A stretch of 64,000 bases of DNA from Patescibacteria group bacterium (lineage in GTDB: Bacteria; Patescibacteriota; Dojkabacteria; J137): contig CAUJCN010000001.1 of the NCBI GenBank assembly GCA_963169855.1, positions 17,828 to 81,827 of the forward strand. The letters are read 5' to 3'. Shown one piece after another: positions 2,166 to 4,684 of this stretch. Made by a program: the position numbers and the translations under genes. Each line of letters begins with the position of its first letter. The first letter of the stretch is position 1. The notes under the pieces are model-generated. The model was not told the origin of the DNA. It did no database searches and saw only the letters and a program-made list of their open reading frames with translations.

Positions 2166-2862
2166 ATATATTTATTAAAAATTAAATAGTACCTTACAAT
2201 CTACCATAGTTTGTTACTTTTACCAAGATACAAGGAAGAGAACGCTCTCCAAGCGTCAATATTGAGTATATATGAGACTGGATCAGAACGTCCAACCAAT
2301 AGGCAAAAATAATTAGTTTTACATAGTAAAACTTGCTATAATTGTGCATAAATTTAGTGTACAGAAATGTATCTAGATTTACCAATTTTTGATATGCCTT
2401 ATTAAGCTATCTCGTACTTAAGAATAAAATCTTCTGTGCACTTTAACAATCTGGATAAAATTTGATATCTGAAACAATATGGTAAGGTAAACCCGATGTC
2501 AGCAAAGTGTGCCTTAAAAAAGACATACCTGGCTGTCATCGGGGGAATTACCCCATACAGTTCTGCTCTTTATTTCATTGAGCAGATTCTGACCGAAAAT
2601 TTAAAAATCCTTTTCCAGGGAGGAAAACCAGGAAAGGTACGGTAGATATTGCCGTGGTCCTTCAAAAAGACCAAATGTATTGGGGAGCGCGAGGCCTTCC
2701 CGTGTCGAAAGACCGAAGTCGAAAGACAAGCCTTGTGGGGGAGAAAACCACCCGCCTAGCGAAAGCAAAGCGAAAAAATCATCTCGAGAGCAGAGGGGGC
2801 AGGAATCGTCTAAGCGGATTATTGCCGAAAACGGCCTGTTCCCTCAAAAGGAGGCAAAGGTA

Positions 2863-4572
2863 ATGAGTAAGAAATTCTTTTGGGTGCTCGCGGCAGTAAT
2901 TCTTGCCGTAAGCACCATCGGGTTTGCCGCGCTGTCAAGCGCGGCGAACGAAGCCGCAGTGGAACCGATTGTGGAGGTGCTAACACAGGTACCGCCACAG
3001 GAAGTTCAAAGCGTGGTTATTGTTGCGGCGCAACCGACGTACGCGGAATGGCAAGCGGCGCAGTCAATCGAACTGCCCCAACACCATCCCGAGTTACTGT
3101 CGGTGACCGTTGTCTGTTATAACGCAACCCATTACAAAGGCTTCGTGACGGCTCGGCCAGACGCCGACCGTCCGTCTCTGACGTGGTGGATCGTTTCGCC
3201 AGCGGGATATCTTCCCGTTGGTGAACAGACCGCGACGTTAGTGAACACGTTCAGCCGTGAAATCCTAGTGCCTGTAAGCCAGGCGAGCTACACCGAAACG
3301 GTCACGGCTCGCTGGTCAAACAATGCACAGGGAACCGGTTCGGTGACTTTCAACCGTCCACAGAACTGCCCGCCGAGTGCAACCACTGCGGCACCTACGA
3401 CGGTAGTTCCACCAACGGTTCAGCCTACAACGGAAACTCCGCCCACGGTTCAACCTACGACGGTCACTCCGCCGACAGTTCAACCCACAACGGAGACTCC
3501 GCCCACGGTGCAACCCACGACGGAGACTCCGCCCACGGTTCAGCCCACAACGGAGACTCCGCCTACGGTTCAGCCCACGACTGAGACTCCGCCCACGGTG
3601 CAACCGACAATCACGCTGACGCCGTCCCTGACGGCGACCAACGTGCAGAACAATCCGACGCCGACGCAGCCGGCTAGCACTGACATTCCAGTGTATGCGT
3701 GCGACAACGTCTCGATCCAATATGATGGGACAACGTTGGAGTACCAGACACCAGATTTGAAGTGGCACTACGGTGCAACCCTCAACGCAGGACGACTCGT
3801 ACTGGCGCAAGGGTCAGCACCGCATGGTGCCAGATTCCGTTTGGTGTACAACGGCATCGTGTTGGTTGAGTTCACTATGAACCAGGGCCAGTGCGAGTGG
3901 GTTCCGACCTTTAGCGAGGTCACGCCCACACCGCCGCCAGACCCCTGTCCGGAATGCACGGAGTACTACTGTGAAATGCAACTCGGAGACGAGTTGATTA
4001 CTCCGTACTGGGACTGGAAGCGCGGGCTGCTTTACAACGTTCGCTCAACCAAACCGTTCCCCGGCGTCCAGGTCACGTACCCCGACATCAACGGGGTGAC
4101 CCGTTTCTTTGCCCATCGCCTCACGGCGAGCGAAGTTTTGACGATCCTCGCGGAGACCGACACGGAGTTTGCGCTCGCGGGCGAGATCACCTTCAGCAAC
4201 AGCGAAGGCGTCCACACGATCGAAGGACACGGAAACGTGAACCTTATTGATGCCGCGTTCGTTGAGCTTGCCAAGGGCAATTCGCCCCACGTCCAAGTCG
4301 AAGGCGGCCAGTGCTCCGAATGCCAACAGGGCGGATGGAGCACCCGTATCGTGAATGGTGAGCTCTATTGGTGGGTGGGATACGGCGGTACGCCGTATGA
4401 CCTCGCCCTCGCAATCGAGATCGACGCGGCCATGGAAATTGGTGAGGCTTTCGCCAGGGCGAAGCGAATTTACGAACGCTTCCACGATGACGCTGCTGCC
4501 TTAGTTGCCGCCAAGAGGCCTGATCCGGGCTTCGGTTGGTACAACATAGACGGAGAACGTCTCGGCCAGTAA
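2863..4572 (+). CDS. secreted protein with Pro/Thr-rich tandem repeats and Cys-containing C-terminal domain (GC-rich island 1)
   Basis: Start chosen at ATG 2863 preceded by AAAAGGAGG, giving signal-peptide-like MSKKFFWVLAAVILAVSTIGFAALSSA. The six-frame ORF extends upstream to 2680 but has no RBS there. ~60% GC versus ~35% in flanking DNA. Confidence 0.6.
   Translation: MSKKFFWVLAAVILAVSTIGFAALSSAANEAAVEPIVEVLTQVPPQEVQSVVIVAAQPTYAEWQAAQSIELPQHHPELLSVTVVCYNATHYKGFVTARPDADRPSLTWWIVSPAGYLPVGEQTATLVNTFSREILVPVSQASYTETVTARWSNNAQGTGSVTFNRPQNCPPSATTAAPTTVVPPTVQPTTETPPTVQPTTVTPPTVQPTTETPPTVQPTTETPPTVQPTTETPPTVQPTTETPPTVQPTITLTPSLTATNVQNNPTPTQPASTDIPVYACDNVSIQYDGTTLEYQTPDLKWHYGATLNAGRLVLAQGSAPHGARFRLVYNGIVLVEFTMNQGQCEWVPTFSEVTPTPPPDPCPECTEYYCEMQLGDELITPYWDWKRGLLYNVRSTKPFPGVQVTYPDINGVTRFFAHRLTASEVLTILAETDTEFALAGEITFSNSEGVHTIEGHGNVNLIDAAFVELAKGNSPHVQVEGGQCSECQQGGWSTRIVNGELYWWVGYGGTPYDLALAIEIDAAMEIGEAFARAKRIYERFHDDAAALVAAKRPDPGFGWYNIDGERLGQ
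3409..3612 (+). repeat. tandem 30-nt (10-aa PTVQPTTETP) repeats, about 7 copies, inside CDS 2863..4572
   Basis: Protein reads PPTVQPTTETPPTVQPTTVTPPTVQPTTETP... Near-identical DNA units differ only at synonymous/wobble positions. Confidence 0.8.
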
Positions 4573-4632
4573 GATATCAAACCCACACCCCACTAGTAAT
4601 TTGTAGTGTGGTGGGGATTTATCCAGATTGAA

Positions 4633-4676
4633 AAACACCCGTCGTAATGGCGGGTGTTTCTTTTTCTTGTTTTTGA
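4633..4676. terminator. rho-independent terminator (aacacccg-tcgtaatgg-cgggtgtt + T-tract), bidirectional
   Basis: 8-bp GC-rich stem followed by tctttttcttgttttt. Sits between convergent genes ending at 4572(+) and 4685(-). Confidence 0.6.
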
Positions 4677-4684
4677 AGACTAAA

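Follow-up and report, generated by a model that had tools for sequence, protein, structure and literature searches.

We analysed a 64,000-nt stretch of the genome of a Patescibacteria group bacterium (positions 17,828 to 81,827 of contig CAUJCN010000001.1, forward strand; hereafter the window), and in particular its GC-rich island at 2460-4680, termed island 1, which encodes a secreted Pro/Thr-repeat protein behind a long leader. Our reading, to which we give a probability of about one half, is that island 1 is a self-contained expression cassette, i.e., one conserved transcription unit laid out like a ribosomal RNA (rRNA) precursor, for a variable secreted or surface protein. Because 23 nt of two leader arms, a and b, can pair with two arms in the trailer, a body of about 2.1 kb, made up of a structured 5' untranslated region (5' UTR) and the coding sequence (CDS), would have its ends joined in a leader-trailer helix that includes a three-way junction. 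Four things went unremarked in the initial annotation of the island: the boxA-like element, the pairing of leader and trailer, the extreme folding of the CDS and the hypervariability at strain level.

Four variants of the protein family were found: the window protein, P0002 (locus L001), P0003 (L002) and P0004 (L004). A word-indexed full-length search of 5.8 billion sequences, with 8,000 candidates scored, returned P0002 and P0003, which are 55% and 36% identical to the window protein in global alignments. When 1.84 billion representative proteins were scored exhaustively by HMMER using the C-terminal domain, one further relative emerged, P0004 (34% identity); relatives sharing the N-domain alone may exist. 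A scan of viral contigs with protein alignment revealed no family member. P0002 and P0003 lie on islands of 55-64% GC within contigs of about 35% GC, and the L002 contig, which stems from a study of wastewater and rivers, belongs to a metagenome-assembled genome (MAG) with the title 'uncultured Candidatus Saccharibacteria bacterium'. By association with the cassette relatives only, the hosts would probably be Candidatus Saccharibacteria. The L004 contig is 50-60% GC throughout and is the one GC-rich contig in which a distant homologue was found by these searches. The genomic context of the window cassette differs from that of L001 and L002.

The window, L001 and L002 are homologous from TGCTATAAT onwards (the blastn match between the window and L002 runs from 2329) up to 4637-4638. 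The elements at the two ends of this unit are the following:

2334-2342, plus strand: putative extended -10 promoter element TGCTATAAT, invariant in the three-way alignment, where the upstream sequence is unrelated and conservation starts
2402-2421, plus strand: short hairpin in the boxB position, read from the sequences; the weak TTAAG/CTTAA in the window, the stronger GCTTAA-TTTA-TTAAGC in L001 and L002
2438-2448, plus strand: boxA-like element GCACTTTAACA, with the core CTTTAACA invariant in the three loci
2447-2459, plus strand: leader arm a, CAATCTGGATAAA, an inverted repeat with 4618-4630; it forms 13 pairs when a mini-construct is folded as a consensus
2461-2469, plus strand: leader arm b, TTTGATATC, pairing with 4573-4581
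4573-4581, plus strand: trailer arm b', GATATCAAA, directly after the stop codon
4582-4616, plus strand: trailer hairpin with conserved loop CUAGUAAUUUGUAG and varying stem, between b' and a' at the three-way junction; seen in the alignment and in consensus and single-sequence folds
4618-4630, plus strand: trailer arm a', TTTATCCAGATTG, directly before the terminator, where homology to the related loci ends
4633-4659, plus strand: terminator-like hairpin with a T run, predicted as an intrinsic terminator

The window, L001 and L002 all possess both pairs of arms, with 13-16 bp for a/a' and 6-9 bp for b/b'. Helix b of L001 reads TTTGAC/GTCAAA and contains two compensatory pairs, and its helix a is lengthened by a matching insertion. 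The leader-trailer duplexes have energies of -20 to -28 kcal/mol, values that 0-2 of 500 shuffles attained. On the left, sequence conservation continues for about 113 nt upstream of the arm, and on the right it halts at the arm, indicating that the conserved unit is a transcript and not a DNA element bounded by repeats. L004 shares no leader sequence with the other loci; at the equivalent sites it has a perfect 12-bp pairing, ACAGAAGAGATT / AATCTCTTCTGT (matched in 9 of 1000 shuffles). Its 5' arm lies about 50 nt after a promoter-like TATAAT sequence, beside a degenerate boxA-like GCTCGTGAATAA, and its 3' arm lies 29 nt after the stop codon, just ahead of a terminator. In this locus, an 83-aa open reading frame (ORF; 2989-3240) with one membrane helix and a PT-rich tail replaces the long structured leader inside the end-to-end helix.

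The boxA-like element matches the boxA consensus GYTCTTTAANA (published in PMC5725501) at 10 of 11 positions in the window and in L001 and at 9 of 11 in L002; this consensus is gammaproteobacterial. No conserved -35 element was found ahead of TGCTATAAT in the alignment of the three loci. The other CTTTAACAA sites in the window were rejected as boxA leaders, the sequence around them not being leader-like. A Rfam alignment to StyR-44 covers the boxA-like bases with an E value of 0.82, far below the gathering score, and is treated as a lead only. StyR-44 is located in the enterobacterial 16S-23S spacer.

The part of the leader between the arms and the start codon is filled by predicted hairpins:

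2492-2543, plus strand: hairpin P1, almost invariant (CCCGAUnnCAGCAAAGUGUGCC...GACAUACCUGGCUGnnAUCGGG); 20 pairs, 2 of them compensatory, 96-97% of cells paired
2558-2672, plus strand: hairpins P2 (2558-2591), P3 (2610-2637), P4 (2639-2655) and P5 (2656-2672); 28 pairs, 6 of them compensatory, 96-100% of cells paired
2680-2771, plus strand: distal leader domain of short hairpins with GNRA-type loops (GAAA), less conserved; 83-100% of cells paired
2799-2844, plus strand: hairpin just ahead of the ribosome-binding site, poorly conserved relative to L001 and L002; 76-100% of cells paired

Per 100-nt interval, the leaders of L001 and L002 are about 62-81% identical, and the window leader is 67-72% identical to either of them. 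The window leader folded as a single sequence has z = -4.7. The consensus of the three sequences comprises 95 pairs with 93% of cells paired, and 13 pairs are compensatory compared with 5.0 +/- 1.7 in shuffles, none of 500 reaching 13; slid controls gave 0-3. The 5' half is far better conserved than the part proximal to the ribosome-binding site. A public gene call of 630 aa beginning at TTG 2680 is over-extended and reads through the non-coding leader at 2680-2862. In-frame stops in L001 and L002, together with indels that are not multiples of three, indicate that the leader is non-coding and that translation starts at ATG 2863, and an N-terminal protein extension was ruled out on the same grounds. 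As judged from covariation, the leader is a conserved non-coding RNA of predicted structure. In L002, an extra module of about 50-60 nt (approximately 2575-2640) is an apparent duplication of a distal-domain hairpin unit, GGGGAGCGC...CCGAAGTCG.

A Rfam search of the cassette region gave nothing at the gathering score, the best matches at E values up to 1 being rnk_pseudo on the terminator (0.19) and StyR-44 on the boxA-like region (0.82). Exact-pattern scans for the leader and trailer in GTDB representative genomes, JGI metagenomes and IMG/VR returned only the already known MAG contig, and blastn of the leader against plasmids and phages gave no match. Three candidate further leader loci (L005-L007) were rejected as chance matches, and so was a single blastn match in E. 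coli, which lies outside any rrn operon.

The gene enclosed by the helix has the following features:

2848-2854, plus strand: Shine-Dalgarno (SD) sequence AAGGAGG, 8 nt ahead of ATG 2863; GGAGG is in the same place in L001 and L002
2863-4572, plus strand: CDS of 569 aa, ATG to TAA; an ORF with full-length homologues P0002, P0003 and P0004
2883-2949, plus strand: two conserved hairpins, at 2883-2916 and 2922-2949, where the signal peptide is encoded, from the covariation test
3393-3605, plus strand: PT tandem repeat, 7.1 copies of a 30-nt unit encoding PTVQPTTETP, found by Tandem Repeats Finder

The predicted folding of the cassette CDS is far beyond chance. With dinucleotide shuffles, the mean z per 150-nt interval was -2.2 for the window cassette (leader and trailer included), -1.9 for L001, -1.8 for L002 and -2.2 for L004; seven other genes ranged from -0.9 to +0.7 in the same test. 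Three 300-nt segments of the window CDS had z values of -3.6, -5.8 and -3.5 compared with -1.4 for a host segment. In synonymous-codon shuffles, which hold protein and codon usage constant, the four family members reached z = -11.0, -8.7, -6.8 and -7.3, with an energy excess of 16-22%, and 15 control genes from four sources, a GC-rich contig among them, gave -2.8 to +2.2 (mean +0.2). This synonymous-site signal, with z of -7 to -11 and much beyond the control genes, is easily testable by recoding. The covariation test used a set of 36 pairs, 25 of which lie in the two signal-peptide hairpins, and 95% of the cells were paired. Eight pairs were compensatory (seven of them in the two hairpins) compared with 3.9 +/- 1.4 in shuffles, of which 2 of 500 reached eight; slid controls gave 0-2. 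Over the whole CDS, double compensatory changes were usually 2-4 times as frequent as in slid controls. The sense strand had a more negative z than the antisense strand in all six genes compared (6/6), by a modest margin, so action at the RNA level is favoured, though not proven.

The protein begins with a hydrophobic, signal-like segment, identified by inspection, and continues with a beta-rich domain in its N-terminal part (PQHHPE...TETVTARWSNNA). The PT-repeat linker then leads to a second beta-rich domain in the middle, which is followed by a Cys-rich segment and, at the C-terminus, an alpha/beta domain. The initial annotation had described a signal-peptide protein with seven PTVQPTTETP repeats; the signal segment is there and PTVQPT occurs seven times, the exact decamer only five times. 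Its description of a Cys-rich C-terminal part in a protein of no recognised fold agrees with our results. There are nine Cys residues, mostly in the C-terminal half, and profile searches of the family members against Pfam, NCBIfam, PHROGs, PADLOC and PDB gave no family match, only the low-complexity Extensin far below threshold. No SLH or other anchoring or lattice domain was found for the four family members in Pfam, NCBIfam or PDB. Two AlphaFold runs had a predicted local distance difference test (pLDDT) score of 45 and 47 and were unusable. In all four full-length homologues the reading frame and the signal peptide are retained, as are conserved Cys and motifs including TETVTARWSNNA, and the amino-acid identity between homologues (55%) exceeds the identity at fourfold sites (36%), which indicates constraint at the protein level. 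P0003 (L002 2788-4671) has an extra folded domain of about 90 aa within its Pro/Thr linker and a very divergent C-terminal half.

Our best reading of these sequences is that the protein is probably an orphan, fast-diversifying secreted or surface protein whose Ig-like N-domain is joined through a Pro/Thr linker to a C-terminal region containing Cys. The signal peptide, the Pro/Thr linker of variable length, the conserved Cys and the strain variability described below make a variable cell-surface or host-contact role, adhesin-like and under diversifying selection, the most likely one. As an orphan, strain-variable secreted protein in a probably epibiotic lineage, it is a candidate for host contact or interplay with phages.

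Island 1 has a GC content of 55.6% compared with 34.8% for the window outside its two islands. In 266 same-size intervals outside the islands the standard deviation was 1.5% and the maximum 39.6%, placing island 1 about 13 standard deviations above the background. The CDS has 58.6% GC and the leader (2460-2862) 46.4%; the GC profile climbs gradually through the leader, to 50-53% in its 3' half, and is 55-65% in the ORF. GC at third codon positions (GC3) is 0.66 in the cassette gene and 0.16-0.30 in host genes. The relative synonymous codon usage (RSCU) of the cassette gene has r = -0.49 with host genes and r = 0.72 with island 2, and it also resembles that of the GC-rich contig. Six independently assembled short-read contigs are 100% identical over the AT/GC junction, which excludes an assembly chimera. 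The short-read contigs of the same organism all end within the PT repeats.

Several elements of the initial annotation can be refined accordingly. The sharp GC contrast that it reported is real, at a somewhat lower value than the proposed 60%, and its GC-rich leader of about 400 nt is non-coding, as the stops in L001 and L002 show, and GC-rich only in relative terms. The strong SD is where it was placed. The suggestion that the leader might hold an RNA element is borne out by the conserved structure, for which no Rfam family exists among the matches; the leader proved neither coding nor unstructured, given the in-frame stops in L001 and L002 and the covariation beyond shuffles. The claim that the island is bracketed by terminators is half right, since the upstream site (2241-2257, about 80 nt ahead of the cassette promoter) is a terminator-like sequence on the minus strand. 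The downstream hairpin at 4633-4659 has T runs on both strands by inspection, the minus-strand run being overlapped by arm a', and the terminator is therefore probably common to the convergent gene at 4685-6124 on the minus strand. On the other side, a SWIB-domain gene (1914-2165, minus strand) adjoins the cassette promoter.

L001 and L002, which represent two near-identical strains, differ sharply at the cassette. Their ABC ATPase genes are 96-100% identical per 100-nt interval and the downstream sequence is 93% identical, but the cassette proteins are only 35% identical, and the MacB-type permease genes in between have 79% amino-acid identity. When L001 2267-7957 is compared with L002 1-6820, a sharp recombination breakpoint separates the ABC ATPase gene from the MacB-type permease gene (51-90% per interval); beyond it are the diverged cassette and two extra small genes that are found in L002 only. 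From this alignment, the locus is a strain-level replacement hotspot. No reverse transcriptase of a diversity-generating retroelement was found among the called genes of any locus, and the only long direct repeats are the PT units. Signatures of mobility were also lacking: there is no integrase or transposase beside the cassette in any locus, no tRNA gene in the 64 kb and no flanking direct repeat. The whole window also gave no Rfam match at the gathering score.

The GC content at fourfold sites is 0.60-0.70 in the cassette alleles and 0.15-0.20 in the adjoining MacB gene. Fourfold sites between the three alleles in AT-rich genomes are saturated (34-36% identity), yet all three alleles are GC-rich, and a simple recent import therefore fits poorly. 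The replaced L001/L002 tract includes the AT-rich MacB gene, suggesting that the tract came from an AT-rich genome that already had a GC-rich cassette. Either GC content and structure are maintained in AT-rich genomes, or cargo is repeatedly swapped from GC-rich sources between conserved ends; the folding favours the former.

Island 2 (approximately 30900-33000) has 59% GC, a GC3 of 0.75-0.79 and two ORFs. The ORF at 30920-31840 matches a PHROG annotated as a kinase. The ORF at 31877-32986 matches phrog_2971, with relatives of 26-28% identity in Vibrio and Rhizobium jumbo phages, and also matches about 140 Mycobacterium phages at less than 60% identity. Both ORFs are hyper-folded in synonymous shuffles (z = -7.2 and -5.0). 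We looked for the island-1 leader and for a significant leader-trailer helix in island 2 and found neither. The match in composition noted in the initial annotation thus stands as far as codon usage is concerned, but the same foreign source is not supported, the relatives of island 2 being phage-like and the leader and a significant helix being absent. A 9-nt perfect complement, TTGTATAGC / GCTATACAA, is present at 30894-30902 and 32991-32999, just before the SD sequence of the first ORF and 4 nt after the second stop codon; it echoes helix b of island 1, and with about 0.17 expected by chance it is not significant alone.

How such a cassette might work can be outlined from the rRNA layout. 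The boxA-like element would recruit factors of the NusB/NusE type, and RNA polymerase could then cross a long stretch of untranslated, slowly translated, C-rich RNA without Rho-dependent termination; a message that is long, slowly translated and C-rich would otherwise be a good Rho substrate. Until the trailer had emerged, the 5' arm would be held close to the polymerase. Dense folding, together with the end-to-end helix, would then shield the message from nucleases, and a site for RNase III is possible. A gene with codon usage opposite to that of its host would in this way be expressed robustly. We infer Nus binding, Rho resistance, formation of the helix in RNA, processing by RNase III, stability of the message and its expression level from the layout.

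Several observations weigh against the cassette reading. The covariation statistics are thin, as the independent leader sequences number three and L004 is the one distant analogue of the architecture. Most single substitutions disrupt predicted CDS pairs, and specific structures are only partly kept. The boxA core 9-mer is not significant alone, with four found in the window and 1.7 expected, and the match was scored on a consensus from the Gammaproteobacteria, a different phylum from that of the cassette hosts. The end-to-end complementarity could also act on DNA, the antisense strand being nearly as structured as the sense strand.

The most familiar alternative is an ordinary, recent genomic island from a GC-rich donor, in which case GC content and codon usage would simply be the donor's and the leader an inherited 5' UTR, with no special role for the RNA features. 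The GC3 and RSCU values given above (0.66 against 0.16-0.30; r = -0.49 with the host and 0.72 with island 2), the family member in the 50-60% GC contig L004, the extremely patchy distribution and the relatives of island 2 in phages of Actinobacteria are all in keeping with such an origin. We nevertheless consider it unlikely, because the three alleles in AT-rich genomes hold a fourfold GC of 0.60-0.70 at 34-36% fourfold identity, the L001/L002 cassette co-varies with the AT-rich MacB gene, and the unit from promoter to trailer is kept across different genomic contexts. Donor composition also leaves the folding unexplained, since z is near 0 for other genes on the GC-rich contig, and no integrase, tRNA or att-like direct repeats were found. 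There is still less chance that the unit is a non-autonomous mobile DNA cassette, whose inverted repeats would be terminal repeats for a transposase or recombinase supplied in trans and whose hairpins would form in single-stranded DNA. Conserved inverted repeats do flank the unit in three loci, with an analogous pair in L004; the genomic contexts differ, strains exchange the unit, and structure on the antisense strand almost equals that on the sense strand. However, conservation runs about 113 nt past the left repeat to the promoter, and a 35-nt hairpin interrupts the right repeat. No target-site duplication was seen on inspection of the flanks, and the gene tables and ORF lists of the loci contain no transposase or recombinase gene. 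Moreover, b' abuts the stop codon and a' abuts the terminator, which is the logic of a transcript and not of element ends.

The near-invariance of P1 and of several junction sequences, while the stems co-vary, and the much better conservation of the 5' half of the leader would also be expected of a regulatory RNA that senses a ligand or protein (a riboswitch-like or autoregulatory site), or of the precursor of a stable small RNA, with the boxA likeness and the end pairing being incidental. This is a distinctly improbable account in our view: no Rfam family was assigned to the leader, which contains no intrinsic terminator and no obvious alternative fold sequestering the SD sequence, and the conservation of the trailer and the folding of the CDS would be left unexplained. 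Finally, the whole region might be a large structured non-coding RNA with the ORF as a by-product of GC richness, since structured RNAs show a comparable folding excess and GC-rich DNA bears long spurious ORFs, e.g., on the minus strand. We find this hardly credible, because the four homologues keep the frame, signal peptide, Cys and TETVTARWSNNA, amino-acid identity is above fourfold-site identity, and the SD sequence is conserved at the right distance.

An extension of the cassette reading is that the GC richness is an adaptation, and that the cassette is one of a class of 'rRNA-mimic' mRNAs in bacteria of the candidate phyla radiation (CPR), with boxA/Nus-modified transcription, closure by a helix and virus-like folding. 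We put this forward tentatively and regard it as doubtful. If such a class existed, its RNAs would be extremely stable, be processed or localised in a special way, or themselves act at the epibiont-host interface. On this reading, island 2, which is GC-rich and hyper-folded but lacks the leader, may be a second, differently wrapped example. If the layout works as in rRNA operons, selection for RNA folding, and not recent import, would offer a reason for the persistence of sharply GC-rich genes in very AT-rich reduced genomes, and the calling of 'foreign' islands in such genomes would be affected.

In S-layer genes and genes for other abundant surface proteins, e.g., Lactobacillus slpA, long structured 5' UTRs stabilise the mRNA. 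The cassette, known from its sequence alone, resembles these genes in its signal peptide, strong promoter and SD sequence, long folded 5' UTR and strain variability. Unlike S-layer proteins, the cassette protein has nine Cys and no detected anchoring domain, and pairing with a trailer and folding throughout the CDS are not features of S-layer genes. A hypervariable surface protein gene with Pro-Thr-Asp repeats has been described in a Gracilibacterium, a CPR bacterium (PMC6851277). The two cases share an AT-rich CPR genome, an extracellular protein with Pro/Thr-based repeats at which assemblies break, and hypervariation that is local and occurs within populations (PMC6851277). In that gene, however, the variation is inside the repeat; no homology was detected, and a GC-rich island, a conserved leader and a leader-trailer helix are not described there (PMC6851277). 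By analogy, the Gracilibacterium PT-repeat protein may serve as a loose precedent.

The folding of the CDS is comparable with the ordered RNA structure at genome scale (GORS) of RNA viruses, where the folding excess is 7-9% in hepatitis C virus and 15% in SARS-CoV-2 and reaches about 24% overall (PMC7642675). The excess of 16-22% in the cassette is in the upper part of this viral range, although the shuffling methods differ (PMC7642675). As in GORS, there are many consecutive stem-loops whose pair positions are only partly conserved among relatives. Unlike these viral genomes, the cassette is a chromosomal bacterial gene, without replicase or capsid genes.

Leader-trailer helices coupled to boxA are textbook features of rRNA synthesis. 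In a narrow literature search, we found no description of such a helix around a protein-coding gene. A boxA-like sequence in the 5' UTR of a protein-coding transcript has a parallel in BoxA-regulated non-rRNA transcripts such as that of suhB (PMC5725501). The suhB-type boxA, however, lies within about 50 nt of the start codon and is repressing at suhB, whereas the cassette element is 415 nt upstream and coupled to a helix, and the organisms belong to another phylum (PMC5725501). In rRNA operons, boxC is found just downstream of boxA, inside the 5' strand of a leader-trailer helix of 25-40 bp (PMC10250234). The cassette follows the same order, with a promoter, a small hairpin, the boxA-like CTTTAACA and then the 5' helix strand, the partner of which lies about 2.1 kb downstream at the transcript end; as in an rRNA operon, the enclosed RNA is more GC-rich and more folded than the surrounding genome. 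It differs from an rRNA operon in enclosing a translated mRNA with an SD sequence and a signal-peptide ORF, no rRNA being found by Rfam, and its helix, here known from sequence alone, is shorter (about 22 bp) and interrupted by the trailer hairpin. If this layout works as it does in rRNA operons, the machinery that transcribes and folds rRNA can be borrowed for a difficult gene.

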